A stretch of 64,000 bases of DNA from an uncultured Alphaproteobacteria bacterium (GCA_902618385.1 CACNAF010000001.1:40207-104206); one strand, 5' to 3'; counted from the first letter of the stretch, positions 2,876 to 52,340 are shown. Made by a program: numbers and translations. Notes: a model not told the origin generated them from the sequence alone.

Positions 2876-3955
2876 TTATTTAAATGCTTGTCCTGAACTA
2901 TCAAATAATTGGCATCTTCCAGCAGGAAAACCAACTTTTACAGTATCACCAACTTTAATTTCTGAATGTCCTTCAGTTTCAGCAACTAATGGCTCTCCAT
3001 CTTTTTCAAGGTATAGGTAAGTAACGTCACCAAGTTTTTCGACAACAAATACTTTACTTTCCCAAGATCCATCTGCATCACCATTTACTACTAAGTGTTC
3101 TGGTCTAATACCTAGAGTTACTGAATCACCCTCTGAGGAGGATGCTGACAGTTTTGAAACTGATATTTTTGACATTCCCATAATATCAACTTCTGTAGCA
3201 TTAGAACTTTTGCTTAATATCTTACTAGAAATAAAGTTCATTTTTGGTGATCCAATAAATCCACCTACGAACATATTATTTGGTCTATCATAAAGTTCGA
3301 GCGGAGATCCTTTTTGTGAAACGATACCCGTATCAAGAACAACAATATCATCAGCTAAAGTCATTGCTTCTGTCTGATCGTGTGTAACGTAAATCATTGT
3401 TGCTTCTAGTTCATTATGAAGTTTTGCTAATTCAACTCTCATTTGAACCCTTAATGCAGCATCAAGATTTGAAAGTGGTTCATCAAATAAGAAAACTTTT
3501 GGTTTTCTTGTAATTGCTCTTCCAATAGCAACACGTTGTCTTTGACCACCTGAAAGTTGTTTTGGCTTTCTTTGAAGATAATCTTCTATTTGAAGAATTC
3601 TTGCTGCCTCATTAACTCTTTCATTAATTTCATCTTTTGATCTTTTTTCTAATTTCAAACCAAAAGCCATGTTATCAAATACAGTCATGTGAGGGTATAA
3701 TGCATATGACTGAAACACCATTGCAATATTTCTTTGTTTTGGTGGTAAATCATTAACTACTTGACCATCAATTGAAATTGTACCTGAATTTATATCTTCA
3801 AGTCCTGCGATCATTCTTAACATAGTAGATTTTCCACAACCACTAGGTCCAACTAGAACTGTGAATGATTGACTTTTGATATCTAGGGATACATCCTTAA
3901 TTACATGGACATCTCCAAAATATTTATTAACAGTATTTATATTTATATCTGCCAC
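2876..3955 (-). CDS. CUT1-type sugar/glycerol-P ABC transporter ATP-binding protein (UgpC/MalK/MsiK-like)
   Basis: Walker A GPSGCGKST, signature LSGGQRQRVAIGRA, Walker B VFLFDEPLSNLD, and a C-terminal MalK-type regulatory domain. Start moved from the ORF-track TTG (3982) to an in-frame GTG at 3955, which has GGAGG 5 nt upstream. Confidence 0.9.
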   Translation of the reverse strand: MADININTVNKYFGDVHVIKDVSLDIKSQSFTVLVGPSGCGKSTMLRMIAGLEDINSGTISIDGQVVNDLPPKQRNIAMVFQSYALYPHMTVFDNMAFGLKLEKRSKDEINERVNEAARILQIEDYLQRKPKQLSGGQRQRVAIGRAITRKPKVFLFDEPLSNLDAALRVQMRVELAKLHNELEATMIYVTHDQTEAMTLADDIVVLDTGIVSQKGSPLELYDRPNNMFVGGFIGSPKMNFISSKILSKSSNATEVDIMGMSKISVSKLSASSSEGDSVTLGIRPEHLVVNGDADGSWESKVFVVEKLGDVTYLYLEKDGEPLVAETEGHSEIKVGDTVKVGFPAGRCQLFDSSGQAFK

Positions 3956-4059
3956 TTCATCCTCCTTTGAGCGATCTTTCAAGTGTATGAAAACTCATCA
4001 TACAAATATATAAATATTTAACGATAATTTTATAAAAAAATCAATAGTTAAAAGGATTT

Positions 4060-17495: not shown

Positions 17496-17501
17496 ATATG
17501 T

Positions 17502-17528
17502 AGCTGATCCACTTACAGTAGATCAGCT
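17502..17528 (-). promoter_or_regulatory. Intercistronic hairpin between the binding-protein and ATPase genes
   Basis: AGCTGATC...GATCAGCT inverted repeat, extendable to 11 bp with one mismatch. Confidence 0.45.
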
Positions 17529-17541
17529 CTGTTTGATATAT

Positions 17542-18531
17542 TTATCTTAAACCTGCGTTAGCAAGTTCCATAACTGATTTGTAATTCTCAGTATGTACAA
17601 ATCCTGCACCAGTATCTTGATTTAATGCTCCAGTTCCAAGAACTTTCATTTGACATAAAGCAAGTACAGGTAGGTAGCCTTGTAAGAATGGTTGCTGATC
17701 AGAAGTTAAATGAACATAACCATTTTCAAAAGCCGTCATGATTTGCGGACTAGTATCAAAGCCAATTTGCAATAATTCTCCTGGACCATATCCAGCAGCT
17801 TTAGCATATGCTTCAGCATTTCCTAGTTTCTGACCACCATCATGTACAATAATTTTTGTATCAGGATTTGCAGCTAGTGCAGCTGAAAATACAGGGATTG
17901 CAAGATTTGGATCAGTTGCTTGTTCTGGAGTACCATCTAGAACTACAACGTTCATTCCATGTTCTTCAAAAATTATTCTAGCACCGTCTTCTCTTTGCGC
18001 TCTTGAATAATCTCCAATTGGAACCATTACAATAGCTGTATCACCAGCTTTAAGATCAAATCTTCTAATCGCTTCTCTTGCTAATTCTTTACCTTGAGTT
18101 GCAAGATTTGCACCAACGTATCCACCCCCAAAAGCAGCTCTTACTGCAGGAACATCAACGTTTTGATACATCATTAAGATACCAGCTTCACTAGCCATTT
18201 TAGCTAGAGGCATAATTGCATCATCACCAGGGTGACCCATCATACCGATACCATCAACGCCAGCACCAATTGCTTCTCTTAGTTGTTGAATCATTCTGTC
18301 TGACTGCCATTCTGAATAAAGAATTTCTGCATCAGCACCAGTATCTCTTATAGCATTTTCCGCACCAGTTTGAACTATTCCTGCGAAACCATCACCTTCA
18401 GCTCCACCAGCAAAGAAGTGAATTCTTACATCACTACACCATCCATCACCTAAGTTTTTATCAATAGCATAAACTGAACCACTGAAATAAAAAACGAAGA
18501 GTGTTGATAATAAAATTTTTAATATTTTCAT
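17542..18531 (-). CDS. Periplasmic sugar-binding protein (RbsB/FrcB-like, type I PBP)
   Basis: 329 aa with a signal peptide. GGAGG SD upstream. Periplasmic binding protein/LacI-like fold pattern. Confidence 0.85.
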   Translation of the reverse strand: MKILKILLSTLFVFYFSGSVYAIDKNLGDGWCSDVRIHFFAGGAEGDGFAGIVQTGAENAIRDTGADAEILYSEWQSDRMIQQLREAIGAGVDGIGMMGHPGDDAIMPLAKMASEAGILMMYQNVDVPAVRAAFGGGYVGANLATQGKELAREAIRRFDLKAGDTAIVMVPIGDYSRAQREDGARIIFEEHGMNVVVLDGTPEQATDPNLAIPVFSAALAANPDTKIIVHDGGQKLGNAEAYAKAAGYGPGELLQIGFDTSPQIMTAFENGYVHLTSDQQPFLQGYLPVLALCQMKVLGTGALNQDTGAGFVHTENYKSVMELANAGLR

Positions 18532-18593
18532 TATTCCTCCCTTGAATAAATATAATGTAAATGAACTTAAAAAATTAAATTAATAATGTCAAC

Positions 18594-20030
18594 CTAGTAG
18601 AGTCTTTTACTAATCCTTTTAGTCTGTCCGTGACTATACACCCCATCTACGCCACCATCTCTTCCATAACCTGATCTTTTGTAACCACCACCTGGAAGAT
18701 TATTTCCATCAACAAACCAATCGTTTTGCCAAATTATTCCAGCCTGAATTCTATCAGCAGTCCATTTTGCTTTTTGATCATCTGAAGTAAATACTCCGGA
18801 AGCAAGACCGTATTTTGTTGAATTAGCTATACTTATTGCCTCTTCTTCATCTTCAAAATCAAATATTGATGTTACAGGGCCAAATATTTCTTCTTGAGCT
18901 ATTGTTGCATCAACTTTGACATTATCAAAAATAGTTGGTTGATAAAAATTTCCATCATTTCTTTCAGCTTTATCTCCGCCTATTGTTAAAGTAGCACCTG
19001 ATTGTACACCAGATTTTACATAATTTGAAACTCTTTGCATTTGATCAGTTGAGATTAAGGGTGTAACTTCCGTTCCTTCCTCATCACCTGCACCTATTTT
19101 TAATTTTTGGGTTTTTGCAACAAGCTTTGTCATATACTCATCTTTAATTTTTGGATGAACTATAACTCTAGACATTGCCACACATATTTGACCTGCATTT
19201 GGTTTAAAAATTCCTTTAACTGTGCTGTCTACAGCTTTATCAATATCAGCATCGGGATAAATTATAGCTGCAGACTTTCCTCCTAATTCAAAATGAGTAG
19301 GAATAATTCTATCTGCTGTTTCTTTTAGAATTTCAGATGCAACTTCAGGCGATCCAGTAAATACAATATAATCACTTCCAGGATGTTGAACCAGTTTTCT
19401 TCCAGTTGTTTCACCATAACCATGAACAATATTTATAATTCCATCTGGAACGCCTACATCTTTAAATATTTGACCATAAAAATTAGATGATATAGGACAA
19501 AGTTCAGGAGGTTTGATAACTATTGTATTTCCAACAATCCAGTTTTGCGCAACCATACCTGAAAAAATAGAAACAGGATAGTTCCACGGAACAATTTGAA
19601 GAGCTACCCCAAAAGGCTCAAGTACAACATAATTTAAAGTATCATGTCCAGAAGGTATAAGTTTATTTTCTATTTTATCTGTAAGTCCTGCATAAAAATC
19701 AAAGGTGTCTGCAGCACCTTTAAATTCATCAATACATTGTTTAATCGTTTTACCATTTTCTTGGCTAAGAAGTTTACCGCCTTCTTCTTTTTTTTCTCTT
19801 AATTTTTGAGCAATAGCTCTCATCATGTTTGATTTATTTTTTGAGTCCATATCGACTAAAATTCTTTTATCGAATGCTCTTTTTGCAGCTTTGAAAGCTA
19901 AATCTATTTCTTCATCCAAAGCTTCATCAATATTACCAACAATTTTTTGATTAGCCGGATTTAATATAGGAATATTTTTCTTTGAGAGTGAATCAATGAA
20001 TTTACCATCAATAAAATTTCTTAACTCCAT
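18594..20030 (-). CDS. NAD(P)-dependent aldehyde dehydrogenase
   Basis: 478 aa. ELGGKS and catalytic-Cys region GQICVAMSR, plus EEIFGPV, all typical of the ALDH superfamily. Confidence 0.9.
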   Translation of the reverse strand: MELRNFIDGKFIDSLSKKNIPILNPANQKIVGNIDEALDEEIDLAFKAAKRAFDKRILVDMDSKNKSNMMRAIAQKLREKKEEGGKLLSQENGKTIKQCIDEFKGAADTFDFYAGLTDKIENKLIPSGHDTLNYVVLEPFGVALQIVPWNYPVSIFSGMVAQNWIVGNTIVIKPPELCPISSNFYGQIFKDVGVPDGIINIVHGYGETTGRKLVQHPGSDYIVFTGSPEVASEILKETADRIIPTHFELGGKSAAIIYPDADIDKAVDSTVKGIFKPNAGQICVAMSRVIVHPKIKDEYMTKLVAKTQKLKIGAGDEEGTEVTPLISTDQMQRVSNYVKSGVQSGATLTIGGDKAERNDGNFYQPTIFDNVKVDATIAQEEIFGPVTSIFDFEDEEEAISIANSTKYGLASGVFTSDDQKAKWTADRIQAGIIWQNDWFVDGNNLPGGGYKRSGYGRDGGVDGVYSHGQTKRISKRLY

Positions 20031-20076
20031 ATAAAGATATAGATAAAACTAAAGCTGAAGATGTGTCAAGTATAGT

Positions 20077-21087
20077 TTAATTATTCGGAACTTGAACTTG
20101 AATAAAATAATCTGGATTTTTAGATTTCTTAATAACTGCTGGTATAATTTCTTTATACGCTTGATATAAAGTTTGTGGTTCAGGCATTTGATCTTTTATA
20201 ACTTCATATAATTTAGGAAGATTGTATGAAGGTATCATAGGAAACATATGATGCTCAATATGGTATTCCATCTTCCAATAAATAAAACTAAAAATTGGGT
20301 TAAGTCTAACTGATCTTGTTGATAGTCGGTGATCCTTTGCATTTTCTTTTAGACCCATGTGTTGTGTTACACCCCAGATGCCATTAATGCCAAAGAACTT
20401 TGGAATTAAAAATAAAAATATTGGAAGAAAGTTAGAAAAGTAAATTGAGGCAGCTATAATTGATATCCATAGTAAGACAAAAATTCTAGAACTATTAATA
20501 CAATCTTTTATTTTATCTTCTGGAATGCAATCTTTCATTACATCAGTCTTAATACCTAAGGCATGTTTTATAATTTCTACATAAAGAGATTTATGAATAG
20601 TGAAAAAACCAATTCCAGGAATAAAATTTAAAATAAAACTTAAAAATGTATGTTTGGCAAAAATACTCCCATCAACTTCATAGTCATGAGGGTCGACTGA
20701 AGCTGTATAACTATGATGAAGAGAGTGACTCCATTTCCATCTAACAGGTTCAAAATTGTTCATAAAACTAGCAATGTTATAGAAAAATTTATTTAACTTT
20801 CTATTTTTGAAGGCGGTTCCATGACCACACTCATGCCATATAGCGTCAGCTCCACCCCAAACGGTACAATAAGCAAGGTAGGCAGGTACAAACCATAAAG
20901 TTTGCCATGTATAAATTGATAATACGCATAGAGCAGTTAATGATATTGTATAAATAATTATATGTTTCCAGCCTTCAAAATCTGATCTTTTAGAGAGTTT
21001 TTTAAGAGTTTTTCTATCTATATTAGCTCTAAACCATTCTTCGGAGATGTTATTTATACCTGTTTGAACTTTTTTAATTTCTGACAT
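20077..21087 (-). CDS. Membrane fatty-acid-desaturase-family di-iron oxygenase (paralog 2)
   Basis: His boxes HECGH, HSLHH, HIEHH. Start set at MSEIKKV (21087) by analogy with the paralog's MSEKLDN; the ORF-track start is 21135. Confidence 0.8.
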   Translation of the reverse strand: MSEIKKVQTGINNISEEWFRANIDRKTLKKLSKRSDFEGWKHIIIYTISLTALCVLSIYTWQTLWFVPAYLAYCTVWGGADAIWHECGHGTAFKNRKLNKFFYNIASFMNNFEPVRWKWSHSLHHSYTASVDPHDYEVDGSIFAKHTFLSFILNFIPGIGFFTIHKSLYVEIIKHALGIKTDVMKDCIPEDKIKDCINSSRIFVLLWISIIAASIYFSNFLPIFLFLIPKFFGINGIWGVTQHMGLKENAKDHRLSTRSVRLNPIFSFIYWKMEYHIEHHMFPMIPSYNLPKLYEVIKDQMPEPQTLYQAYKEIIPAVIKKSKNPDYFIQVQVPNN

Positions 21088-21203
21088 TACAACATATAAA
21101 TAATAAAAATTTAGACTTTTTCCAGTAAAATTCACTTATTTATTTTATAACAAATAATAAATATTTAGGTTATTGAGACAGAAATTTTAATACATTCTGC
21201 ACT

Positions 21204-40981: not shown

Positions 40982-41240
40982 AATTATGATTAGAATATAC
41001 TTATAATTTATATTATATTATTACTATCCTTAAACATTATTTAATTTATAAAAACTATAAAATGATAAAATTTATAATTTGGTCTTTAATAGCAATTTTT
41101 TTAATAGTTATTTTTTATTTTTCTTTTAACTATTTTTTAAGTTTAATTAGGGAGCAAATGATTTTTATGCTTTAGATTAATTTTTTGTCGCAATTCCTAA
41201 TTTTCTTCGTTTTTTTGGGTCAAAATATTTCATAAATAGA

Positions 41241-41269: not shown

Positions 41270-41290
41270 TTCTTATATATGGAGGAAATG

Positions 41291-42616
41291 ATGAATAAAA
41301 TTTTAAATATTTTTTTAACTTTTATTCTTACAGCTTTTTTCGCAACTTCAACATTTGCTGCCACTAAAGTAGTTTGGTGGATGGAAAGTAGTGCAGATAC
41401 TGACCCTACAGTTCAAGAAATGATGTGTGATGCTTTTAATGCTGAACAAGATGAAGTAGAATTAGAATGTGTATTCAAAGAAGACATTAATGATACTATC
41501 AGACCAGCTCTTTTATCTGGAAGTGGACCGGACATGTTTGATACACCTGGTGCTTCTTACATAAAAATTTACCAAGATGCAGGTCTTGTTAAATCTATGC
41601 AAGAGTATGCTGATCAATATGGTTGGCAAGATAAACTTCTAGGTTGGGCTTACAACTCAGGAGTATTTGATGGTGAATTATATTCAATTCCAAAAAACTA
41701 TGAAACAATGATTTATTTTTATAATAAAACTTTGTTTGAAGAAAATGGATGGAGTACGCCAAATAATTTAGAAGAAGTTGAATCTTTAGCTGCTAAAATT
41801 AAAGCTAAGGGAATGAATGTTTACGCGTATGGTTCTGCTGGATGGCAGCCAACTCACGAACATTTAGTAGGAAACTATTTCAACACTTATGCTGGACCAG
41901 ATAATGTCTATAAAGCATTAATTGGTGAAAAAAAGTGGACTGATCCAGAGTTTGTAGAAGCAATTGAACTTTTAAGAAAACACATGGTAGATGAAGGTTA
42001 TTGGTCTGGGGATTTAGAGACATATTATTCTTTAGATTGGGATGATTTTAATAACGAGTTTGCTACTAGAGGTTCTGCGATGCTCATGATTGGAACTTGG
42101 GGTTTCAATGTAACGGCAACGAATTTTGGAGAAACTTCTGATGATTGGGATTGGAATCCTTTACCGATTCTGAATTCACAGGCAGGAAGTGCTCCTAATT
42201 ACCAACTTGCAACAGGTGGAACAATGTCCATTAATGCAGCATCTAAAAATGCTGATGGAGCTGCAAAAGTAATTGATTGGATTCTTTCTGATAAAGAAAG
42301 AGCTCTTAAAGTTACTGGTAGTTTAGGTTATGGCGCTTGGTTGTTACCACTAAAATACACTGATGCTGACTTTGATCCTAATATTGATCCAAGACAAAAA
42401 AGATTCTTAACTGAATTCGCAGAAGCTTCTGATTCTGGAAACTATGGATATACAACATGGACGTTCTATCCGAATGATCCAGGTGTTCATATTTGGAAAG
42501 ACATGGAAGTGGTTTGGGCTGGAGATATTACTCCACTTGAATTCATGGAAGAATCTCAAAGACTTTGGGATCAAGCTCGTGCAGACGATGCATTAGTTCC
42601 AGTTGGAAAAAGATAA
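41291..42616 (+). CDS. Periplasmic sugar-type solute-binding protein (CUT1 family)
   Basis: Signal peptide MNKILNIFLTFILTAFFATSTFA. The GGAGG inside the ORF-track N-terminus (41281-41285) argues for a start at 41291. Family-1 SBP-like. Confidence 0.85.
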   Translation: MNKILNIFLTFILTAFFATSTFAATKVVWWMESSADTDPTVQEMMCDAFNAEQDEVELECVFKEDINDTIRPALLSGSGPDMFDTPGASYIKIYQDAGLVKSMQEYADQYGWQDKLLGWAYNSGVFDGELYSIPKNYETMIYFYNKTLFEENGWSTPNNLEEVESLAAKIKAKGMNVYAYGSAGWQPTHEHLVGNYFNTYAGPDNVYKALIGEKKWTDPEFVEAIELLRKHMVDEGYWSGDLETYYSLDWDDFNNEFATRGSAMLMIGTWGFNVTATNFGETSDDWDWNPLPILNSQAGSAPNYQLATGGTMSINAASKNADGAAKVIDWILSDKERALKVTGSLGYGAWLLPLKYTDADFDPNIDPRQKRFLTEFAEASDSGNYGYTTWTFYPNDPGVHIWKDMEVVWAGDITPLEFMEESQRLWDQARADDALVPVGKR

Positions 42617-42629
42617 TTTATAAATTTAA

Positions 42630-42654
42630 ATAAGGGGAAATATTTTCCCCTTAT
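42630..42654 (+). promoter_or_regulatory. Intercistronic hairpin after the SBP gene
   Basis: ATAAGGGGAAA-tat-TTTCCCCTTAT, 11-bp perfect stem, followed by an A-rich rather than a T-rich tract. Confidence 0.5.
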
Positions 42655-42670
42655 TAAAAATAATAAAATT

Positions 42671-43549
42671 ATGCCAAAATTTTTAACAAGTATAAATGCA
42701 ATTTCCTGGTACTTTTTATTTCCAGTAATATTTATTCATTTCTTTGTGGTGATGTTTCCATCGGTACTAAGTTTATTGTTATGTTTAACGGACTGGAATG
42801 GTTTTGGCAGAATAAATTACGTTGGATTAGAAAACTTTCAAGAATTATTTAGAGACCGTGTTTTCAAGAAAGCAGTTAAACACAACATAATTTGGACAGT
42901 AATGTTCTTAACAATACCAGTAATAGTAGCACTTATTATAGCCTATCTTTTAACTGGAATAAAAAGAGGACAACTTTTTTATAGGCTAGTATATTTTTTT
43001 CCATATATTTTAGCCAGTATCGTTAACTGTTTGATTTGGAGATACATATTCCATCCAAGACATGGTTTAGGTGGTTGGTTTGAGAATCAAGGTATTGATT
43101 TTCTTGCTAAGTCACCTTTTGCAATGAAAGAGACTGCTTTATACGCTGTTGCCTGGGTAGATATGTGGCACTTCTGGGGCTTCTTAGTTATTATTTATTT
43201 AACTGGCATGTATCAAGTTGATGATTCTCTTTATGAAGCAGCAGATATTGAAGGAGCAACAAAATTTCAAAAATTTAGATATATTACTTTACCAATGATA
43301 CGTCCAATTTTTGTTTTATCTTTAATAATTATCATTATCTGGTCTGTCCCAACATTTGATTATGTATACATTTTAACAATGGGTGGGCCAGCATACAGTT
43401 CTGAAGTTGTAGCAAATCATCTGTACTCTCAAGCCTTTCAACGAATGAATGTTGGTTACGCGTCTACTATAGGTGTTATGATGTTCTTCTATGTCGGTAT
43501 TATAGTTGGTTTTTTTGCAATTTTAAGGCGGATGGGTTGGGAGGTATAA
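42671..43549 (+). CDS. CUT1 ABC permease (MalF/UgpA-like)
   Basis: 292 aa, EAA-loop YEAADIEGATKFQKFRYITLPM. Confidence 0.9.
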   Translation: MPKFLTSINAISWYFLFPVIFIHFFVVMFPSVLSLLLCLTDWNGFGRINYVGLENFQELFRDRVFKKAVKHNIIWTVMFLTIPVIVALIIAYLLTGIKRGQLFYRLVYFFPYILASIVNCLIWRYIFHPRHGLGGWFENQGIDFLAKSPFAMKETALYAVAWVDMWHFWGFLVIIYLTGMYQVDDSLYEAADIEGATKFQKFRYITLPMIRPIFVLSLIIIIIWSVPTFDYVYILTMGGPAYSSEVVANHLYSQAFQRMNVGYASTIGVMMFFYVGIIVGFFAILRRMGWEV

Positions 43550-43557
43550 AATTATAA

Positions 43558-44400
43558 ATGGCAACTGCAAGATTTAGACAAAGATCTAGCTATATAAATC
43601 ACGCCATTTTGATTTTTATGGCTTTAACAATTATTTTACCATTACTAGTTTTAGCTTTTAATTCTATAAAACCATCTTCTGAATTTGGAGCAAATCCTTT
43701 AGGTTTTCCAAATGAAATAAGATTGATGAATTATTATGATGCTTGGGTAAATGGAAATTATACTCAAATATTTACGAATTCACTTACTTTGGTTATCGGG
43801 ACATTGATATTAAATTTGACTGTTTCAGGCCTTGCTGCTTTCAGTTTGGCAATTTTAAACCCAAGAGGAATTCAAACAATTGTTGTTGGCTTATACCTTT
43901 TAGTTGGAATAAGTATTCCTGCTCAATTATTTATTTTACCATTATTTTTAATGTGGAAAAGTTTATATCTCCTAGACACAAGGATTGGTTTAGTTATTAT
44001 TTATAGCGCCTTAAATGCCCCTTTCGCAACTTTCTTAATTCGATCATATATGTTGCAACTACCTACAGAACTATTTGAAGCTGCTAAACTAGATGGGGCA
44101 TCTGTTATGCAATTGTTTACAAGGGTTGCCCTACCTTTATCTTGGCCAGTTTTTTTAACAACAGCGCTTATTGTGTCATTAACAGTTTGGAATGAGTTTT
44201 TATTTGCTATTACTTTTATTATTACTGATGAGTACAAACCTATTTCATCAATTTTGTTTACATTCCAAAGTAGATTTGCAAATGATTATGGGTTGGTAAG
44301 CGCAGCTTCAATTTTAATGGCTGCACCAATTGCTATTTTATTTATGTTTTTCCAAAGAAGGTTTATTGCTGGTTTAACGAGTGGAGCAACTAAAGGTTAA
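43558..44400 (+). CDS. CUT1 ABC permease (MalG/UgpE-like)
   Basis: 280 aa, EAA-loop FEAAKLDGASVMQLFTRVALPL. Confidence 0.9.
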   Translation: MATARFRQRSSYINHAILIFMALTIILPLLVLAFNSIKPSSEFGANPLGFPNEIRLMNYYDAWVNGNYTQIFTNSLTLVIGTLILNLTVSGLAAFSLAILNPRGIQTIVVGLYLLVGISIPAQLFILPLFLMWKSLYLLDTRIGLVIIYSALNAPFATFLIRSYMLQLPTELFEAAKLDGASVMQLFTRVALPLSWPVFLTTALIVSLTVWNEFLFAITFIITDEYKPISSILFTFQSRFANDYGLVSAASILMAAPIAILFMFFQRRFIAGLTSGATKG

Positions 44401-44422
44401 TATTTAAAACGGGAGTAATTAA

Positions 44423-46585
44423 ATGGACCTAAATAAGACTTTTGAAGATAAAGTATACGCAGGTGTATTAGGAAAAATCATTGGTGTTTACTTAGGCCGT
44501 CCTTTTGAAGGTTGGTATTACGACCGAATAATGAAAGAACTTGGTCCAATTAATTATTATGTAAATGATAAATTAGATTTTCCCATTCATGTAACAGATG
44601 ATGACTTAACAGGAACATTTAGATTTATTAATGCTTTGAAGCATTTTAATTTTGATAAAAATATTACCGCAAAACAAATTGGTCAAACCTGGTTAAATTA
44701 TTGTTTGGAAAATCAGACTGTACTTGCATGGGCTGGAAAAGGTATCTTAACTGAAGAAAGTGCTTTTATGAATTTGAAACAAGGTATTCATGCTCCTGAA
44801 AGTGGTTCTATTAAAATGAATGGAAAAGTAATTGCCGAGCAAATAGGTGCTCAAATATTTATTGATGGATGGGGAATGGTCTCGCCAGGAGATCCCGAGC
44901 AAGCAGTTGAATTAGCAAAAAAAGCTGGCAGTGTAAGTCATGATGGTGAATCTGTTTACGGTGCTCAAGTGGTAGCTGCAATGGAAGCATATTCTTTTAT
45001 TGAAAATGATATTAAAAAAATAATTGAAAACAGTAAAAAGTTTGTTCCTTCTGACTCGACAATTTACAAACTTATTTCTGATATTCAAGATTGGAGTTCA
45101 GGTAATTTAGACTGGGAGCAAGCAAGAACTAAAATTGAAGATAAATATGGTTATGCAAAATTTCCAGGTAATTGTCATATCGTTCCCAATCATGCTTTAA
45201 TTATTCTCGCACTACTTTTTGGTGATGATAATTTTCAAAAATCTTTAATGATTGTAAATACTGCTGGTTGGGATACTGATTGTAACTCGGGTAATGTTGG
45301 GTGTATTTTAGGAATCAAAAATGGCCTAGAAGGTATTAAAGATGGTCCAGACTATATTACGCCTGTTAACGATATAATATATTTACCTACCGCATATGGC
45401 TCGGAAACAATGACCGATGCCTTAATAGAAAGTCAGAATATTATTAATATTACGAGAAGAATGAATGGACTAGAAAGTAAGTCTATAAAAAATAACGCAA
45501 GATATAATTTTGAGATGGAAACATCGACACAAGGTTGGATGGTAGATAAATCAAATGATAATAATTTAAACACTAAAATTTCAAATGTTGATTATAAATC
45601 TAATATTGGACAGAGAGCTCTAGAGATAAATTTTACTGACTTATCTTTTGGTTTATCAAGTGAAATTTATGTAGAAAGTTTTTTTCCTGAATGGTTTACA
45701 AGGTTAGAAGGTTATCAATTCCAAAGATACTTTCATTATGATTATGTAGCTTGCCCAACCGTATATAGCGGTCAAAAAATTAAGACAGAATTGATCTCAG
45801 ATACTGATAAAGATTTAAAAATTAATTTATTTATCAAATATTGGGGTGCTGATGATAAGCTCATTAAAGTATCATCTGATGATTTTAATATTAAGAATAA
45901 AGAAAGTAAAATTATAGAATGGATTGTACCTGATACTTTATCAAATCCAATTGGTCAGATTGGTATTAGTATTAACTCAGATAATAATAATAATGGCAAA
46001 ATTCTAATGAATTATTTAGATATTTCTGGAACACCTAAAATGACATTCAAAAGACCTGATCACATTGATGAATATACAAGAGGTATTTTTTATAAAGAAC
46101 AGCCTTACGGTCAATTATGGAAAAGGGCTTGGGTGAATGATGTAGATAAATGGCAATTTAGATGGCAAGAAGCTTTTAAAATTGTAAGAGGTATTGGAAG
46201 GGGCCACATTATGACTGGAAGTGAGACATGGAAAGATTATACAATCTCATCAAAGATATCCATTCCACTTGCATCTGCTGCTGGTCTGATACTAAGATCT
46301 CAAGGCTTAAAAAGATATTATTCTCTTGAGCTCACTTCTGACAAAAAGTTAAAAATAAATAAAATGGAGTATGAATTAAAAACTCTAAAAGAAATAGATT
46401 TTGATTTAGAATTTTTTAAAGATTACAATTTAAAATTCAAAGTTAAAGGCAATCATTTACAAGGTTTTGTCGATGATAATTTAATGATTGAGGTTGAAGA
46501 TAATGAAAATTCATTTGAACAAGGGATGATTGGTTTCATAACTGAAAATGGAGCTATTCAGAGTGAATCAATTTCAATAGAATAA
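44423..46585 (+). CDS. ADP-ribosylglycohydrolase-fold protein with a long beta-rich / lectin(jelly-roll)-like C-terminal extension, paralog 1
   Basis: 720 aa. ARH-family blocks are GVYLGRPFE, VTDDDLTGTF, GSVSHDGE, NTAGWDTDCNSGNVGCILG. The C-terminal ~160 aa (WKDYTISSKISI...GFITENGAI) resemble a LamG/DUF1080-type jelly roll. Confidence 0.7.
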   Translation: MDLNKTFEDKVYAGVLGKIIGVYLGRPFEGWYYDRIMKELGPINYYVNDKLDFPIHVTDDDLTGTFRFINALKHFNFDKNITAKQIGQTWLNYCLENQTVLAWAGKGILTEESAFMNLKQGIHAPESGSIKMNGKVIAEQIGAQIFIDGWGMVSPGDPEQAVELAKKAGSVSHDGESVYGAQVVAAMEAYSFIENDIKKIIENSKKFVPSDSTIYKLISDIQDWSSGNLDWEQARTKIEDKYGYAKFPGNCHIVPNHALIILALLFGDDNFQKSLMIVNTAGWDTDCNSGNVGCILGIKNGLEGIKDGPDYITPVNDIIYLPTAYGSETMTDALIESQNIINITRRMNGLESKSIKNNARYNFEMETSTQGWMVDKSNDNNLNTKISNVDYKSNIGQRALEINFTDLSFGLSSEIYVESFFPEWFTRLEGYQFQRYFHYDYVACPTVYSGQKIKTELISDTDKDLKINLFIKYWGADDKLIKVSSDDFNIKNKESKIIEWIVPDTLSNPIGQIGISINSDNNNNGKILMNYLDISGTPKMTFKRPDHIDEYTRGIFYKEQPYGQLWKRAWVNDVDKWQFRWQEAFKIVRGIGRGHIMTGSETWKDYTISSKISIPLASAAGLILRSQGLKRYYSLELTSDKKLKINKMEYELKTLKEIDFDLEFFKDYNLKFKVKGNHLQGFVDDNLMIEVEDNENSFEQGMIGFITENGAIQSESISIE

Positions 46586-46610
46586 ATTTTAATTTAAAAA
46601 AGGATGCGTT

Positions 46611-48770
46611 ATGAAACTAGATAAGACTTATGAAGAAAAAGTATACGCTGGAGTGCTCGGTAAATTAATTGGTGTGTATTTAGGCCGTCCTTTTGAGCAG
46701 TGGTCACATGAAAGGATTATGGAAGAGCTAGGTGAAATTAATTACTATGTTAATGAGCAATTAAATGTCCCATTAGTTGTAACAGATGATGATATAACTG
46801 GAACATTTACATTTCTCCGTGCTCTAAGAGAAAATAATTATGACCCTAATATAAGTCCAAAACAAATTGGTCAGTCTTGGCTTAATAATTTAATTGAGAA
46901 CAAAACAGTTTTATGGTGGGGAGGAAGAGGTCATTCAGCTGAAGATACTGCATATCAAAATTTAAAAGCTGGAATAGAAGCTCCTATGAGTGGATCAATA
47001 GAAACAAATGGTAAAGTAGTTGCGGAACAAATAGGTGCTCAAATATTTATTGACGGTTGGGCTTTAGTCACTCCTGGTGATCCAGAAAAAGCAGCAGATC
47101 TTGCAAGAAGAGCAGGAAGTGTCAGTCATGACGGGGAAGCAATCTATGGTGCTCAGATGGTTGCAGCTATGGAGTCACTAGCATTTGTTGAGACTGATAT
47201 TAACAAAATTATTGATGAGTCAAAAAAATATATCCCAAATAGTTCTCTTATTTATAAACTGATTGGTGAACTTCAAAATATGAGAGCTGGTAATAATGAT
47301 TGGATGCAGGCAAGAGAGTTTCAAGCTGAAACATATGGATATGACAAATATCTTGGCGGATGTCATATGATACCTAATCATGCAATAATTATACTGTCAC
47401 TATTATTTGGTGATGATGATCTTCAAAAAACTCTTATGATAGTAAATACCGCTGGTCATGACACTGATTGTAATTCTGGTAACGTTGGTTGCATTATGGG
47501 CATTAAAAATGGTCTTGAAGGCTTAAGGAATGGTCCAGATTATTTAACACCTATACAAGATAGAATGTATTGTCCGACTGCTAATGGAGGTGAAACGCAA
47601 ACTGATGCCTTAACAGAAGCTTATAAGGTTATTAATACTGCTAAAAAAATGAATAAAGAAGAAACTGTTGAGCCTAAAAATGGTTCAAGATTTCATTTTG
47701 AAATGCCTGGTTCTGTTCAAGGTTGGAGATCAAGTTTTAAAAATAACAAAAATATTTCAACTATTGTCCAAAATACTGAGTATGAAAGTAGTATAGGAAA
47801 AAGAGCATTAGAAATTAAATTTGACAGAGTCGCGCCTGGTGTTTGTTCTGAGGCTGTTGTTGATACTTTTTTTCCTCAGGAATTGTATGAGTTAACAGGG
47901 TCTGCAAGAGAAAGATTTTTTCAAAGTTATAACTTTATTTCCTGTCCACTTTTATATTCAGGACAAAATATAGAAAGTGAAATCATTTTTAAGTCGAATT
48001 CTCAAAAACCAATTACGGTTACATGTTTTATCAATGTTTTTGGAGAAGAGGATAATTATGAAAGAATAAATTCTGAAAGCGTAGTGCTTTTTCCTGATAA
48101 ATCACAAAAACTTAAATGGAAAATTCCTTCAACAGAAGGCAATCCTATTACACAAGTTGGTTTTTCTATAGAATCAGATGAAGCAAATTCTGGAAGTTTA
48201 ATTTTAAATTATTTAACTTTCACTGGTGAGCCAAATTGTAAATTTTCTAAACCTAACCATATTGGAAAACATAAAAGGGGTGTTAAATTTTCAAATGCTA
48301 AAATGTGGAAAGCTAGTTGGGTCGATGCTCTAGATAAATGGGATAGTGGAGAGAGAACTTTTAGAGTCTGTAAAGATAGTGGTAGAGGAATGTTAATTAC
48401 AGGAACTGATTTATGGAAAAACTATAAAGTTACTTCCGATATTGCAATTCAGCGAGTAAAAACAGGCGGTCTTGCTGTGAGAGTGCAAGGATTAAATAGA
48501 TATTATGGTTTAGTGATTAGTGCATCAAATAAACTTCAATTAATAAAAGTAATTAATGAACCAAAAGTGTTAAAAGAAATAGATTTTGATCTTGAATATT
48601 ATAAAGATTACAAATTATCTCTTAAAGTCGAGGATAATAAATTGTCTGGTTATCTTGATAATAAAGTTGTTTTAGAGTTCACTGATAATTCTGATGTGCT
48701 TGAAAATGGAGCTATGGGATTAATTGTTGAAGATGGAACTATGGTGACTGATGAAGTCATTGTAGAATAA
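46611..48770 (+). CDS. ADP-ribosylglycohydrolase-fold protein with a long beta-rich / lectin-like C-terminal extension, paralog 2
   Basis: 719 aa, collinear with paralog 1. Same blocks: VTDDDITGTF, GSVSHDGE, NTAGHDTDCNSGNVGCIMG, WKNYKVTSDIAI...GLIVEDGTM. Confidence 0.7.
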   Translation: MKLDKTYEEKVYAGVLGKLIGVYLGRPFEQWSHERIMEELGEINYYVNEQLNVPLVVTDDDITGTFTFLRALRENNYDPNISPKQIGQSWLNNLIENKTVLWWGGRGHSAEDTAYQNLKAGIEAPMSGSIETNGKVVAEQIGAQIFIDGWALVTPGDPEKAADLARRAGSVSHDGEAIYGAQMVAAMESLAFVETDINKIIDESKKYIPNSSLIYKLIGELQNMRAGNNDWMQAREFQAETYGYDKYLGGCHMIPNHAIIILSLLFGDDDLQKTLMIVNTAGHDTDCNSGNVGCIMGIKNGLEGLRNGPDYLTPIQDRMYCPTANGGETQTDALTEAYKVINTAKKMNKEETVEPKNGSRFHFEMPGSVQGWRSSFKNNKNISTIVQNTEYESSIGKRALEIKFDRVAPGVCSEAVVDTFFPQELYELTGSARERFFQSYNFISCPLLYSGQNIESEIIFKSNSQKPITVTCFINVFGEEDNYERINSESVVLFPDKSQKLKWKIPSTEGNPITQVGFSIESDEANSGSLILNYLTFTGEPNCKFSKPNHIGKHKRGVKFSNAKMWKASWVDALDKWDSGERTFRVCKDSGRGMLITGTDLWKNYKVTSDIAIQRVKTGGLAVRVQGLNRYYGLVISASNKLQLIKVINEPKVLKEIDFDLEYYKDYKLSLKVEDNKLSGYLDNKVVLEFTDNSDVLENGAMGLIVEDGTMVTDEVIVE

Positions 48771-48773
48771 GTT

Positions 48774-49757
48774 ATGAAATATAGAAAATTTGGCTCACTG
48801 GATTGGAATGTTTCCGAAGTTGGTTTAGGTTGTTGGCAAATAGGAGCTGATTGGGGGAATGTAACTGAAGACAGTGCTCAAGAAATTTTAAAATCATCGT
48901 ATGAAAATGGTGTAAACTTCTTCGATACAGCTGATGTCTACGGAATGGGTAGAAGTGAAAAATTTGTAGGCGATTTCCTTAAATCAGTATCTGATAGAAT
49001 TTATGTAGCAACAAAAGCAGGAAGACAAATAAATCCCCATGTTGCTGAGGGATACTATGATAAAGCTTTAATGGAGTCTTACGTAGATCAATCTTTATTA
49101 AACCTTAATGTGGAAACGATTGATCTTTTACAAATGCATTGTCCTCCAACAGAAGTGTATTCATCTGACAACACATTTGAAATGTTAGATTATTTAGTGA
49201 GTAAAGGTAAAATTCAAAATTATGGTTTTAGTGTTCAAACAGTTGACGAGGCTCTTGAATGCATCAAACGACCAAATACAAAATCTATTCAGGTTATATT
49301 CAATATTTTCAGACAAAAACCTGCTGAAAAATTATTTAAAATTGCAAAAGAAAAAAAAGTTGCAATTATTGTTAGAGTACCCCTTGCAAGTGGATTATTA
49401 ACTGGAAAGTTTAATAAAGATTCATCATTTGCTCCTGATGATCATCGTAATTACAATATTAATGGAGATGCGTTTGATGTAGGTGAAACATTTTCAGGCG
49501 TAAATTTTAATAAGGCATTAGAAGCTGTTGATGAATTAAAAAATATATTACCAGAAGGTATTACGTTATCACAGTTATCACTTAAATGGATTCTAATGCA
49601 TGATGCTGTTAGTATTGTCATTCCTGGTGCTAAAAATAAAGATCATGTAGGTCTGAATACTTCTTCTTCAGAATTAGATACTATTTCTTCTTTAATGAAT
49701 GAAATAAATAGTGTTTACACAAAATATTTTTTTGATGATGTTCATCATCGTTGGTAA
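48774..49757 (+). CDS. Aldo/keto reductase
   Basis: GLGCWQIG, FFDTADVYG and IPGAKN motifs. 327 aa. Confidence 0.9.
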   Translation: MKYRKFGSLDWNVSEVGLGCWQIGADWGNVTEDSAQEILKSSYENGVNFFDTADVYGMGRSEKFVGDFLKSVSDRIYVATKAGRQINPHVAEGYYDKALMESYVDQSLLNLNVETIDLLQMHCPPTEVYSSDNTFEMLDYLVSKGKIQNYGFSVQTVDEALECIKRPNTKSIQVIFNIFRQKPAEKLFKIAKEKKVAIIVRVPLASGLLTGKFNKDSSFAPDDHRNYNINGDAFDVGETFSGVNFNKALEAVDELKNILPEGITLSQLSLKWILMHDAVSIVIPGAKNKDHVGLNTSSSELDTISSLMNEINSVYTKYFFDDVHHRW

Positions 49758-50911
49758 AAATATTTGTGTCAGAGGAAATTAAAATATTTAGAAGGGCAAC
49801 GCTTGCTTCAGTAATCACTTCAACTTATCCCATGATAGTTGTTGGCTGTTATTTTGGTGTTACGCCTTGGATTTTTAATAGATTATCCATAGATGAATCT
49901 GATTTCAGTTTTGCGATACTGCTTTTTGGTATCTTCTTTATTATCTCTAATCAGATAGCAGGTCGTATACTTGTACCAAAGTATGGAACAAAATTAATTA
50001 TGTCTCTAGCTTTTCCATTGGTTACCTTTTCTACCTTTTTAGCTATTATTTCTTCTTCATATTTTTATTTTTTATTAACATTTATACCGGCTGGAATTGG
50101 ATGGGGAGCATCTGGACCAATAGGAGGAATACATAGTCAATTAATTGAAAAACATTTTAAAAAAATTATTACACCTTACTATGCTATGGGTTTCAATTTA
50201 GGTATTTTAGTTGGCGGTTCATTAGCAGGTATAATTATGAGAAATAATTATGAGCCTTATTTATTTTTTGGAATTTTATCTTTTCTATCACTATTTGTTT
50301 CTATTTTTGTATATTTGTTCGGATTACCTCGAAATTTAGATTTTAGAGGTGAAGGAGAAAAATTCAAAATTCCAGAGACTAATGTTCTTTTATTTGGGTT
50401 TTTATTATTTTTTGTGTTCGGTTCAGGTGGAATAATTATGGATTGGTCAACATTATGGTTATCAAAAGATTTAAATGCTCCTCTTTACTTAGCTAGTATG
50501 GGATTAATATTTTTCAGTATTGGAGGTATTTTTGCTAATCTATTTTCAAATTCTTTGATTAAATTATTTACAGAAAAAGTTGTTGGTTGCCATTTTGTAA
50601 TGATTGGAGCATCAATAATGTTTTTATCCTTATTAACTAATAATTTTTATATTATTCTTGCAGTTCTAAGTCTTTATGGATTTGCCATAGCTAATTTAGT
50701 TCCAATTGTGATTAGACAAGCAGTCAAACAGTCCTCAGAGAGTATTCCTATGACAGTTACCAATCTTATTACAATTGGATTATCCTCAACAATGATTATG
50801 CCAGCAGCAATTGGCTTTTTAGCTGAAACCTTTTCGCTTACTTTAAATATGTATTTATTGTGTATTATAGTCTTTACTTCTGGAGTTGTTTTTTTACTAA
50901 AGTTTAAATAA
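49751..50911 (+). CDS. MFS-type transporter
   Basis: 386 aa with about 11-12 hydrophobic segments. Non-ATG start (TTG 49751 or GTG 49766) overlapping the AKR stop. Confidence 0.6.
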   Translation: MVKIFVSEEIKIFRRATLASVITSTYPMIVVGCYFGVTPWIFNRLSIDESDFSFAILLFGIFFIISNQIAGRILVPKYGTKLIMSLAFPLVTFSTFLAIISSSYFYFLLTFIPAGIGWGASGPIGGIHSQLIEKHFKKIITPYYAMGFNLGILVGGSLAGIIMRNNYEPYLFFGILSFLSLFVSIFVYLFGLPRNLDFRGEGEKFKIPETNVLLFGFLLFFVFGSGGIIMDWSTLWLSKDLNAPLYLASMGLIFFSIGGIFANLFSNSLIKLFTEKVVGCHFVMIGASIMFLSLLTNNFYIILAVLSLYGFAIANLVPIVIRQAVKQSSESIPMTVTNLITIGLSSTMIMPAAIGFLAETFSLTLNMYLLCIIVFTSGVVFLLKFK

Positions 50912-50917
50912 ATTTAA

Positions 50918-51724
50918 ATGAATAAATTAAAAATATCTCAAGTTCAATTCCAAGCAAGTCACGTCCCAGCTTTAAATGCAAAAATTATTGAAAAAAGTTT
51001 TAATAATACATTAAAATTTAAACCTCACTTAATTTGCACACCAGAATGCTCGAACATCATTACTAATGATAAAAGTTATTTAATTTTTAACGCACCATAC
51101 CAAAATACATGCCCAGTTTTGAAGATGGCAAAAGATTTTGCTAAGAAAAATAAAGTAAATATAAATCTAGGTTCTTTACTTTTAAGAATTAAAAACAAAA
51201 GTAAATTGGTTAATAGATCTTTTTTTATAAACAATTATGGAGTCATAAAAAAAACATATGATAAGATACATATGTTTGATGTTGAAATTAATAACAAAGA
51301 AAAACATCAGGAATCATCTTTGTTCAAAGCTGGTAATAAAATAATTTTTACAAAAATTAATAATATTAAATTAGGAATGACAATTTGTTATGATTTACGA
51401 TTTCCTAATTTATATAGGCAACTTGCTAAAAAAGATTGTTCAATTATTTTAGTTCCTGCTGCTTTTACTAGACCAACTGGGAAAGATCATTGGGAGGTTT
51501 TGAATAGATCAAGAGCTATAGAGAATAATTTATTTATTGTGGCAACAGGTATGTGTGGAAATCATCATATGAAAAGAAAGACTTATGGGCATTCTCTTTT
51601 GGTAGATCCTTGGGGTAAAATTATAAATAGCACTAAAAATAAACCTGCAGTCATTAACTCAACTATTAATATTTCTGATGTAAATAAAATAAGAAAAAAA
51701 ATTCCTTCTTTAAAATATGAGTAA
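50918..51724 (+). CDS. Carbon-nitrogen hydrolase (nitrilase superfamily)
   Basis: Catalytic triad context: TPECS (Glu), YDKIHMF (Lys), MTICYDLRFP (Cys). Confidence 0.85.
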   Translation: MNKLKISQVQFQASHVPALNAKIIEKSFNNTLKFKPHLICTPECSNIITNDKSYLIFNAPYQNTCPVLKMAKDFAKKNKVNINLGSLLLRIKNKSKLVNRSFFINNYGVIKKTYDKIHMFDVEINNKEKHQESSLFKAGNKIIFTKINNIKLGMTICYDLRFPNLYRQLAKKDCSIILVPAAFTRPTGKDHWEVLNRSRAIENNLFIVATGMCGNHHMKRKTYGHSLLVDPWGKIINSTKNKPAVINSTINISDVNKIRKKIPSLKYE

Positions 51725-52340
51725 TTTTAAATCACTAGTTTCTGGCGTTGGCAATTTGAGTAAAACAACAAAATATTATGATGATTGGTCAGAAAATTAT
51801 GATGCAACACTCAAGTTATGGAATTATCAAGCACCTAAAAAGAGCATTAAATTTTTAAAAGAAACGATTAATATCAAACCAAAAAATATCTTAGACTTAG
51901 CATGTGGAACTGGTTTATTTGGTGCTGAATTAAAAAAAGTTTATCCAAAAAGTCATATTTATGGTTCAGATATTTCAAAAAAAAGCCTGAAAATTTCATC
52001 AGGAAAAAAAATTTATAAAAAATTACAAATAAAAAATTTTGAACAATTACATCATTATAAAATAAAATTTGATCTCATTTCCCTGATTGGCTCCATGACG
52101 TATTGCAAAAACTTTGACAAATTTTTTGCTAATATTAATAAAAATATTAAAGAAAAAGGCTTTGTACTATTTACCCATAGAATAGATTTATGGGAGAAAC
52201 AGAATTTTTTAAGTATTTTAAAAAAACATCAAAAGTCATTAAAAATCAATAAAATTTCTAGACCATTAAATTATCTACCTTTGAACAATGATTTCAAAAA
52301 TAAAATAAAAATAAAAATTGTTTTATTACAAAAATATTAA
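51717..52340 (+). CDS. Class I SAM-dependent methyltransferase
   Basis: Motif I ILDLACGTGLFG. 207 aa. Overlaps the upstream gene by 8 nt. Confidence 0.75.
   Translation: MSNFKSLVSGVGNLSKTTKYYDDWSENYDATLKLWNYQAPKKSIKFLKETINIKPKNILDLACGTGLFGAELKKVYPKSHIYGSDISKKSLKISSGKKIYKKLQIKNFEQLHHYKIKFDLISLIGSMTYCKNFDKFFANINKNIKEKGFVLFTHRIDLWEKQNFLSILKKHQKSLKINKISRPLNYLPLNNDFKNKIKIKIVLLQKY

Follow-up and report, generated by a model that had tools for sequence, protein, structure and literature searches.

The locus examined here raises a question: what do two adjacent, double-length proteins with a predicted ADP-ribosylglycohydrolase (ARH) fold do directly behind the genes of a sugar importer? The two open reading frames (ORFs), A and B, lie in a 64,000-nucleotide stretch of DNA from an uncultured Alphaproteobacteria bacterium (GCA_902618385.1 CACNAF010000001.1:40207-104206); we refer to this whole stretch as the window. 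A model reading the sequence alone (the original prediction) had proposed that A and B form a pair of ribosyl small-molecule or glycoside hydrolases. Both belong to a family that we name ARHL, defined by three domains: ARH, a jelly roll resembling carbohydrate-binding modules (CBMs) 22 and 4, and a CBM66-like jelly roll. In broad terms, ARHL proteins are quite probably catabolic hydrolases acting on an imported compound. Judging from its GC content of ~30% and its near-identity to SAR11-like single-cell genomes, the window itself appears to be SAR11/Pelagibacterales-like.

Two collinear paralogs with one three-domain architecture

The genes and their predicted domains are as follows.

44423..46585, plus strand: long ARH paralog A, 720 residues; ortholog of copy 3 in four-copy SAR11 arrays
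44423..45457, plus strand: A residues 1-345, ARH-fold catalytic domain (PF03747, E 2.9e-49)
45458..46102, plus strand: A residues 346-560, middle beta-sandwich, a jelly roll of the CBM22/CBM4/CBM11/CBM16 type (AlphaFold2 [AF2] and Foldseek)
46103..46582, plus strand: A residues 561-720, CBM66-like concanavalin-type beta-sandwich (Foldseek and family profile)
46611..48770, plus strand: long ARH paralog B, 719 residues; ortholog of copy 4, with the same three domains
about 46611-47645, 47646-48290 and 48291-48767, plus strand: N-terminal, middle and C-terminal domains of B

A and B are collinear and separated by 25 nt, with coordinates and lengths exactly as originally called. BLASTP aligns them end to end over 723 columns (E = 0), with 51% identical and 73% positive positions. 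Identity is 65% over residues 1-345, 38% over residues 346-560 and 39-40% over residues 561-720, in line with the earlier estimates of N-domains "about two-thirds" identical and C-terminal halves "much more diverged". The motif strings quoted at the time, GVYLGRPFE, VTDDD(L/I)TGTF, GSVSHDGE and NTAG(W/H)DTDCNSGNVGC, were all located in both translations. At the DNA level, the best-matching stretches of A and B reach at most 72-73% identity, which argues for an old duplication; recent gene conversion was rejected on the same ground. As neither translation contains a signal peptide, both proteins are predicted to be cytoplasmic.

An intact two-metal site with a family-wide cysteine

Profile searches place the N-terminal domains in the ARH family, as had been proposed. 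PF03747 (ADP-ribosylglycohydrolase) spans residues 14-307 in both A and B (E 2.9e-49 and 6.7e-50), covering model positions 2-286 of 287 with scores of 168.7 and 170.8 bits, far above the gathering score of 26.2. For A, the motifs were mapped onto the archaeal ARH MJ1187, a structural-genomics protein (PDB 1t5j; phmmer), and onto canonical short ARHs (hhalign). GRPFE29 corresponds to the G-x-P-x-E motif of ARHs, V-T58-D59-D60-D61 to the Y-T-D-D-S/T motif, and D284-T-D286-C287 to the D-x-D-S/T motif. In ARH3, ARH1 and DraG, these motifs provide the ligands of the binuclear Mg/Mn site. In an alignment of 111 full-length family members from several phyla, E29, D59, D60, D61, D284 and D286 are kept in 109-111 sequences, while position 58 is Thr in 92 and Ser in ten. 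The acidic residues of the metal site (E29, D59, D60, D284 and D286) are intact in A and B, as first supposed, and near-invariant throughout the family. Altogether, 76 N-domain positions are at least 97% conserved in this alignment.

One position of the site departs from the characterized enzymes: residue 287, Thr or Ser in characterized ARHs, is Cys in 109 of the 111 members. A second invariant cysteine, C294, follows seven residues later, and both are present in A and B. A cysteine in place of the Thr/Ser ligand may favor a softer metal. The residue preceding D284 is Trp in 97 members, His in the B clade, B included, and Arg in seven others.

Conservation at this level bears on whether ARHL proteins might keep the ARH fold as non-catalytic sugar-binding or sensor proteins, or as pseudoenzymes. 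ARH-family pseudoenzymes do exist, for example jellyfish crystallin J1 and ADPRHL1. The family itself contains one such candidate, P0196 (737 residues), which retains the three-domain architecture and has lost nearly all metal-ligand motifs (GAGLGHHHL for GVYLGRPFE, GWGTAANLS for GWDTDCNSG); it is probably a pseudoenzyme offshoot. However, P0196 is the lone degenerate member, an exception that shows what loss looks like, against the 109-111 of 111 members that keep the catalytic and metal residues. The ratio of nonsynonymous to synonymous substitution rates (dN/dS) between orthologs, approximate since dS is near saturation, is 0.03-0.06 in the N-domain and 0.09-0.23 in the middle and C-terminal domains for both paralogs, and A and B are under purifying selection in all domains. 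A non-catalytic role is, in our judgment, scarcely credible.

Structural comparisons of the N-domain gave fainter signals. A single-sequence search of the PDB returned only a weak match to MJ1187 (E 0.034 with the full length, 0.0022 with the N-domain), and the family profile, run against PDB sequences, matched no ARH chain and matched CBM66 instead. An AF2 model of A, built from a 17-sequence alignment, has a mean predicted local distance difference test score (pLDDT) of 71. Its N-domain is helical, with pLDDT mostly 35-75, low because the alignment is shallow; in Foldseek against the PDB it matches ARH3 (6g1q) and MJ1187 with template-modeling (TM) scores of 0.59 and 0.67.

Two beta-sandwich domains resembling carbohydrate-binding modules

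The ~370-residue half that follows the ARH domain had been read as a single lectin-like segment ending in a LamG/DUF1080-type jelly roll. Its resemblance to carbohydrate-binding modules holds, and so does the fold class; the DUF1080 assignment itself does not, as PF06439 (DUF1080) scores 15.6 bits in A, under its cut-off of 26.8, and has no Pfam match in B. The closer relative is CBM66. The C-terminal ~160 residues of the A model superpose on CBM66 chain 4b1m_C with E 5.8e-9, TM 0.84 and a root-mean-square deviation of 1.8 Å, at 22% identity over 158 columns (Foldseek), in a region where pLDDT is 84-97 (residues 591-720) or 71-76 (residues 561-590). The family profile independently matches the Bacillus subtilis CBM66 sequence (E 1.4e-5). 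In B, PF21708, the C-terminal lectin domain of glycoside hydrolase (GH) family 59, scores 30.5 bits, over its cut-off of 27. The PF06439 and PF21708 families share a lectin-type beta-sandwich (jelly-roll) fold. By sequence and by structural similarity, the last domain belongs with CBM66; sugar binding by it is a prediction.

Ahead of this domain lies a second jelly roll, of CBM22/4-like type, that the original prediction had not separated. In the full-length model of A, pLDDT varies across it in blocks from 54 to 92. A separate AF2 model of residues 350-578 (pLDDT 75) found only CBM jelly rolls among its top Foldseek matches (E~2e-6, TM 0.4-0.6).

A fixed architecture that is widespread in bacteria

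The three-domain arrangement of ~700-740 residues is fixed and widespread among bacteria, well beyond what the original prediction had supposed, and is no speciality of SAR11. Of the 8,000 candidates scored in a word-indexed search, 7,227 protein clusters reached E <= 1e-10. Among the top 120, nearly all are 718-734-residue proteins from marine metagenomes, and the sole name that their sources supply is "ADP-ribosylglycohydrolase family protein". Close relatives in ocean metagenomes form 90%-identity clusters with 400-530 member sequences.

With the C-terminal half (residues 346-720) as query, a full HMMER scan of 1.84 billion representatives recovered 828 relatives. In near-full-length relatives (697-737 residues), the match always lies at about residues 345-720. 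Stand-alone occurrence of this half was rejected: the short matches that were inspected (P0130, P0138, P0140 and P0142; 376-386 residues) begin mid-sequence, and we therefore take the shorter database matches to be fragments. The C-terminal half is essentially always fused to an ARH domain.

A search of GTDB with a single genome for each species found a relative at 592 loci or more. SAR11-like single-cell genomes ("uncultured Alphaproteobacteria" AG-xxx) encode proteins 57-100% identical to those of the window. Carriers at 42-49% full-length identity comprise a Rhodobacteraceae bacterium, many Chloroflexota (among them the cultured Dictyobacter alpinus), Bacillota, Abditibacteriaceae, Chthonomonadaceae and Nitrospirales. 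Further full-length homologs are found on Rhizobium and Agrobacterium megaplasmids, in Deinococcus aetherius and in Enterobacter hormaechei. The Enterobacter locus (L080; CP103578.1, 333570-353657) holds a trio of LacI, long-ARH and binding-protein genes between chiP and glnS, with no permease genes; CP103578.1 is labelled a 517-kb plasmid, yet bears the chromosomal housekeeping genes seqA, pgm, fur, glnS and nagE/B/A.

The original prediction had not recognized the proteins as a described enzyme, and we likewise found no characterized member of this architecture in the PDB, NCBIfam or the searchable literature, nor any publication there tying the architecture to a function. No NCBIfam model, including those for DraG and Tri1, matches A or B.

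Conserved linkage to a sugar importer

In the window, A and B stand in a tight, same-strand block directly after the genes for a binding protein and two permeases, confirming their placement in a sugar-importer operon. The genes that accompany them are as follows.

41279..42616, plus strand: periplasmic solute-binding protein, 445 residues, SBP_bac_1, CUT1 sugar type (PF01547, E 4.5e-25; signal peptide)
42671..43549, plus strand: ATP-binding cassette (ABC) permease 1, 292 residues, MalF/UgpA/GlcT-like (PF00528; NCBIfam GlcT/UgpA-like)
43558..44400, plus strand: ABC permease 2, 280 residues, MalG/UgpE/GlcU-like (PF00528, E 5.6e-17; NCBIfam GlcU/UgpE-like)
48774..49757, plus strand: aldo-keto reductase, 327 residues (PF00248, E 2.6e-59), beginning 3 nt past the B stop
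2876..3982, minus strand: MalK/UgpC-type ABC ATPase of a second CUT1 system (NCBIfam)

From 41279 to 52340 all genes lie on one strand with gaps of at most 55 nt, in the order binding protein, two permeases, A, B, aldo-keto reductase, major facilitator superfamily (MFS) transporter, CN-hydrolase and methyltransferase. The binding protein, with the N-terminus MNKILNIFLTFILTAFFATSTFA/ATK, opens this cassette. An SBP_bac_1 protein with a signal peptide and two BPD_transp_1 permeases together mark the importer as CUT1. The nearest PDB relatives of the binding protein are oligosaccharide binders. A survey of SAR11 binding proteins in strain HTCC1062 (PMC11485210) contains no characterized ortholog of it, and the glucose binder from that survey, SAR11_0769 (PDB 8HQQ), is absent from its PDB matches.

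Pfam detects no ABC ATPase gene between 40982 and 52340. As no ATPase is encoded within the cassette itself, the protein encoded at 2876-3982 could energize the importer in trans; it matches MalK with E 4e-146 and 486.5 bits (under the 568 cut-off) and UgpC with 464.7 bits (over the 432 cut-off). No regulator gene was found in the cassette, and no riboswitch upstream of the binding-protein gene, where Rfam gives only a chance snoRNA match. Scans for promoters and terminators told us little in such AT-rich sequence: promoter-like sites stayed at the level of shuffled DNA.

We surveyed the neighborhoods of ARHL genes in 79 fetched loci (L numbers denote individual loci), calling ORFs and clustering the neighbors. 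Of 45 non-SAR11 loci for which 4 kb or more of upstream sequence is available, 26 carry orthologs of the binding-protein and permease genes immediately upstream, on the strand of the ARHL gene. These orthologs show 33-53% identity; for the binding proteins encoded ahead of long ARH genes in other phyla the range is 33-46%. A LacI regulator accompanies 18 of 56 non-SAR11 loci, and a PfkB kinase adjoins 12 of 51. In Rhizobium jaguaris, a six-gene unit comprises LacI, binding protein, permease 1, permease 2, ARHL and a MalK-type ATPase, with ARHL as the only enzyme. There and in Agrobacterium, the ATPase gene directly follows the long ARH gene, and its product is 50% identical to the ATPase at window positions 2876-3982.

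This synteny speaks to an alternative in which A and B serve in regulation or repair as de-ADP-ribosylases of the DraG/ARH1/ARH3/Tri1 type, acting inside the cell on proteins, nucleic acids or small molecules, with their transporter adjacency being coincidental. De-ADP-ribosylation is the sole biochemically established activity in PF03747, and the metal ligands are intact. Coincidence fits poorly, however, with linkage to an orthologous sugar importer and LacI conserved across phyla, with ribokinases adjoining at some loci, with two carbohydrate-binding-like domains fused to the enzyme, or with up to four tandem copies in a streamlined genome. Moreover, no ADP-ribosyltransferase is encoded among the annotated neighbors of A and B, PADLOC reports no match to an anti-phage defense system, and the NCBIfam searches gave no DraG or Tri1 match. 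We regard such a role as very unlikely.

Other recurrent neighbors add detail. A second, different ARH-family protein adjoins ARHL in nine Chloroflexota-type loci, with ~380 residues in L041, L051, L052, L074 and L078 and 441-589 residues in L026, L032, L040 and L047, suggesting that a single substrate is cleaved in two ARH-type steps. Glycosidase genes are added at some loci, GH35/42-like in L077 and GH2 together with a trehalase-family protein in Deinococcus. In every SAR11-type locus with the downstream flank on its contig, the aldo-keto reductase gene comes after the last of the long ARH genes, whatever the copy number, and such genes also lie near a long ARH gene in L035, L044 and L048; the reductase is possibly, not demonstrably, part of the pathway. 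The remaining neighbors in non-syntenic loci (LRR, PQQ, DNA polymerase B, methyltransferase and others) showed no pattern.

Ribose release as the proposed activity

To our knowledge, every ARH enzyme studied so far (ARH1, ARH3, DraG) cleaves the C1'' bond of a ribose bound by the two-metal site. Based on the conserved two-metal site, the cytoplasmic location, the CBM-like domains, the importer synteny and the recurrent ribokinase, we suggest that A and B are metal-dependent cytoplasmic hydrolases that free ribose from an imported ribose-containing compound, a reading to which we give an even chance. The adjacent binding-protein-dependent CUT1 ABC importer would take up a ribose-containing glycoside or oligosaccharide, and the ARH two-metal site would hydrolyze the ribose C1 bond to give D-ribose or a ribosyl unit plus an aglycone, with the two beta-sandwiches helping to hold the non-ribose portion of the substrate. 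In many other bacteria, a ribokinase encoded by an adjacent gene would then phosphorylate the freed ribose; SAR11-like genomes have the aldo-keto reductase gene instead, and we speculate that its product processes the sugar or the aglycone. The original idea of a ribosyl small-molecule or glycoside hydrolase thus gains support from importer and ribokinase synteny conserved in other phyla.

The adjacent kinases are central to the choice of ribose. Six were scored against the ribokinase equivalog model TIGR02152 (cut-off 299.65). All four tested from a ribokinase subgroup (L048, L032, L042 and L077) pass, with 333-373 bits; the two from a second subgroup (L060 and L074) reach 62-64 bits and are ribokinase-like only. 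Together with their relatives in L052, L061, L062, L064 and L073, the latter make up seven of the 12 adjacent kinases, and this subgroup scores best to ribose-1-phosphate kinase models. The kinases of the ribokinase subgroup differ in position and orientation, which argues for repeated recruitment.

The second kinase subgroup lends weight to a variant in which A and B are catabolic glycosidases of an imported compound, with the sugar of the cleaved bond not being ribose released free. In one version, the glycone is another furanoside (a fructo-, arabino-, galacto- or apio-furanoside), for which the proximity of the C-terminal domain to CBM66, a module that binds fructan ends, can be cited. In another, a riboside is first 5-phosphorylated by the PfkB neighbor and then cleaved to ribose-5-phosphate, as in the logic of pseudouridine kinase and glycosidase; canonical ARH substrates do have a 5''-phosphate on the ribose, and the seven second-subgroup kinases, closest to ribose-1-phosphate kinase models, are ribokinase-like only. 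The SAR11 loci, which have no kinase at all, and the co-occurrence of other glycosidases at some loci also fit such a variant. On the other hand, the four kinases that exceed the ribokinase cut-off do so on a model trained on kinases of free ribose, and the two-metal site that recognizes the ribose cis-diol is fully conserved. Likewise, no fructokinase, arabinose or galactofuranose genes recur among the clustered neighborhoods. We consider another glycone, or release as ribose-5-phosphate, unlikely, if worth keeping in view.

Several observations weigh against the proposal that A and B release ribose from an imported compound. Hydrolase activity is a sequence-based prediction for all ARHL members. 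Elsewhere, a PfkB kinase adjoins only about a quarter of the loci and about 40% of non-SAR11 loci are without transporter context, and tblastn finds no ribokinase in the window itself. One metal ligand is Cys rather than Thr/Ser family-wide, which hints at altered metal chemistry. The N-domain is too divergent for the family profile to detect any PDB ARH by sequence, so its substrate geometry may differ from that of the ADP-ribose enzymes, and its AF2 model is of low confidence. The PDB relatives of the binding protein are found at E~1e-17 only, so its ligand cannot be predicted from them. Finally, the GH2, GH35-like and trehalase-family genes at other loci may point to a glycan of greater complexity as the natural substrate.

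Copy number and divergence of the tandem paralogs

Rather than a unique duplication, as the window viewed on its own would have it, A and B are part of a copy-number series. SAR11-like genomes carry one (L013-L020 and L023), two (the window and L001-L003) or four (L004-L007, L009 and L011) tandem long ARH genes. In a neighbor-joining tree, all SAR11-type ARHLs fall into one group, in which a clade of B and copy 4 branches first; the other clades are the single-copy type, L012, copy 1, copy 2, and copy 3 with A. From this placement we conclude that A and B are the orthologs of copy 3 and copy 4, respectively. The tandem copies are old paralogs, each under purifying selection, that probably act on related but different substrates.

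The flanks of the SAR11-like loci are 80-99% identical, with an ABC-F protein and an HpcH aldolase on the left and the aldo-keto reductase, MFS transporter, CN-hydrolase and methyltransferase on the right. Against these flanks, the cassettes of one-copy and multi-copy loci are only 51-72% identical, with binding proteins 51-100% identical among versions. The cassette behaves like a replaceable island at a fixed site.

Two further features of the SAR11-type cassettes were observed. In the 297-nt spacer upstream of the binding-protein gene, a 37-codon ORF (41062-41175, plus strand) encodes the hydrophobic peptide MIKFIIWSLIAIFLIVIFYFSFNYFLSLIREQMIFML; it is present, with coding-like substitutions, in all multi-copy SAR11-type loci and absent from one-copy loci. 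The otherwise syntenic L002 carries a GntR/UTRA (HutC-type) regulator gene (Pfam; L002:6096-6785, plus strand) between the small ORF and the binding-protein gene.

The original prediction had seen in the unequal divergence of A and B a pair with diverged substrate-recognition domains, an interpretation that wider comparison does not bear out. For the N-terminal, middle and C-terminal domains, identities are 92-94, 77-80 and 82-84% among orthologs of A, 89-91, 75-78 and 67-70% among orthologs of B, 60-66, 28-33 and 32-36% between SAR11 and Chloroflexota, and 70-74, 43-47 and 38-51% among other phyla. Among orthologs, as across phyla, the C-terminal half evolves at about three times the rate of the N-domain, so the asymmetry between A and B reflects a general rate difference. 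A special divergence of this half after the duplication was rejected, as orthologs and inter-phylum pairs show the same pattern. Positions fixed within each SAR11 clade and differing among clades make up 6%, 10% and 11% of the N-terminal, middle and C-terminal domains; such a mild enrichment in the C-terminal half would be compatible with sub-specialization.

Comparison with known systems

ARHL proteins share the motifs G-x-P-x-E, T-D-D and D-x-D-S/T, and probably the all-helical ARH fold, with ARH3, ARH1, DraG, Tri1 and MJ1187 (1t5j), and presumably, with ARH3, ARH1, DraG and Tri1, metal-assisted hydrolysis at ribose C1. The characterized ARHs are single-domain proteins of about 300-360 residues that act on ADP-ribosylated macromolecules or on O-acetyl-ADP-ribose, whereas ARHL proteins have ~720 residues with two extra beta-sandwiches, a Cys for the Thr/Ser ligand and a family profile that detects no PDB ARH. 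DraG-type ARHs are encoded beside an ADP-ribosyltransferase, ARHL proteins in sugar-uptake operons. By profile and motifs, ARHL lies within the ARH superfamily; by the tests run, it falls outside the DraG, Tri1 and ARH3 functional groups.

One of the nearest parallels in gene content is offered by the ribose-utilization (rus) loci of Bacteroidetes, where uncharacterized ARH genes often accompany ribokinases (Glowacki et al., bioRxiv 10.1101/574913). These loci likewise combine an ARH, one or more ribokinases, a sugar importer and often LacI, and their ARH proteins have been proposed to free ribose from ribose-containing nutrients (10.1101/574913). The likeness is one of gene content: uptake in rus loci relies on SusC/D outer-membrane systems plus a permease of the MFS type, whereas ARHL loci have CUT1 ABC importers, and the rus ARHs are not reported as being of the three-domain type (10.1101/574913).

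Similarly, the yegTUV operon of Escherichia coli encodes a nucleoside-type MFS transporter, a short ARH (YegU) and a PfkB kinase (YegV), and is controlled by the GntR-family regulator YegW/GgaR (PMC10819704). The set of transporter, ARH-fold protein and PfkB kinase recalls ARHL loci, and the SAR11-like locus L002 also has a GntR/UTRA regulator; on the other hand, the ARH there, YegU, is short and single-domain, and uptake goes through an MFS rather than an ABC transporter. Since no yegTUV gene has a clear function (PMC10819704), the comparison yields no substrate.

The C-terminal 130-160 residues of A and B have the concanavalin-type beta-sandwich of the CBM66 of B. subtilis levanase SacC (4azz, 4b1l, 4b1m). 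In SacC this module is joined to an extracellular fructanase of family GH32, and its ligands are the ends of levan chains, whereas in A and B it is fused to an ARH domain predicted to be cytoplasmic.

Taken as sequence-based evidence, these comparisons suggest that an ARH-fold enzyme has been recruited, with carbohydrate-binding-like domains, into nutrient uptake operons. If so, the ARH fold would extend from signaling, in which it removes ADP-ribose marks, to nutrient catabolism, and ARHL might define a new mechanistic class of glycosidase with an unusual Cys metal ligand. More tentatively, ARHL would found a new catabolic glycoside hydrolase class on the ARH fold, outside existing glycosidase classifications. 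Its members would be binuclear-metal, possibly Cys-ligated, ribofuranosidases with built-in carbohydrate-binding domains, and their substrates one or more unrecognized ribose-containing dissolved organic compounds imported by SAR11 via a dedicated ABC system, with each tandem paralog handling another variant. We hold this fuller proposal to be possible rather than likely.

SAR11 bacteria have streamlined genomes with few carbohydrate genes and are the most abundant marine heterotrophs. Many SAR11-like single-cell genomes nevertheless spend 2-9 kb on one to four ARHL copies beside a dedicated importer. This use of genome space and the abundance of ARHL in ocean metagenomes point to a quantitatively relevant, unnamed organic substrate in seawater, which may matter for marine carbon cycling. 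The module of enzyme plus importer is common to soil and wastewater Chloroflexota, rhizobial megaplasmids, Deinococcus and Enterobacter, and one solved member would provide an annotation for thousands of genes.

Other sugar-uptake genes in the window

The second CUT1 sugar ABC system (2876-7120, minus strand) is complete, including the MalK/UgpC-type ATPase. Among the matches of the binding protein of this system are the Thermus alpha-glycoside-binding protein 6J9W (E 1e-126) and the trehalose/maltose-binding protein 1EU8, and the system is therefore probably an alpha-glucoside importer. A CUT2-type monosaccharide ABC system, with a Peripla_BP_4 binding protein, an ATPase and a permease, lies within 13920-21135 (minus strand). 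It is flanked by an aldehyde dehydrogenase and a GFO/IDH/MocA oxidoreductase whose best NCBIfam match, below cut-off, is levoglucosan dehydrogenase. Two genes of the fatty-acid-desaturase family are located at 7268-8269 and 20077-21135 (minus strand). For a streamlined genome of ~30% GC, the window is unusually rich in sugar-uptake genes.

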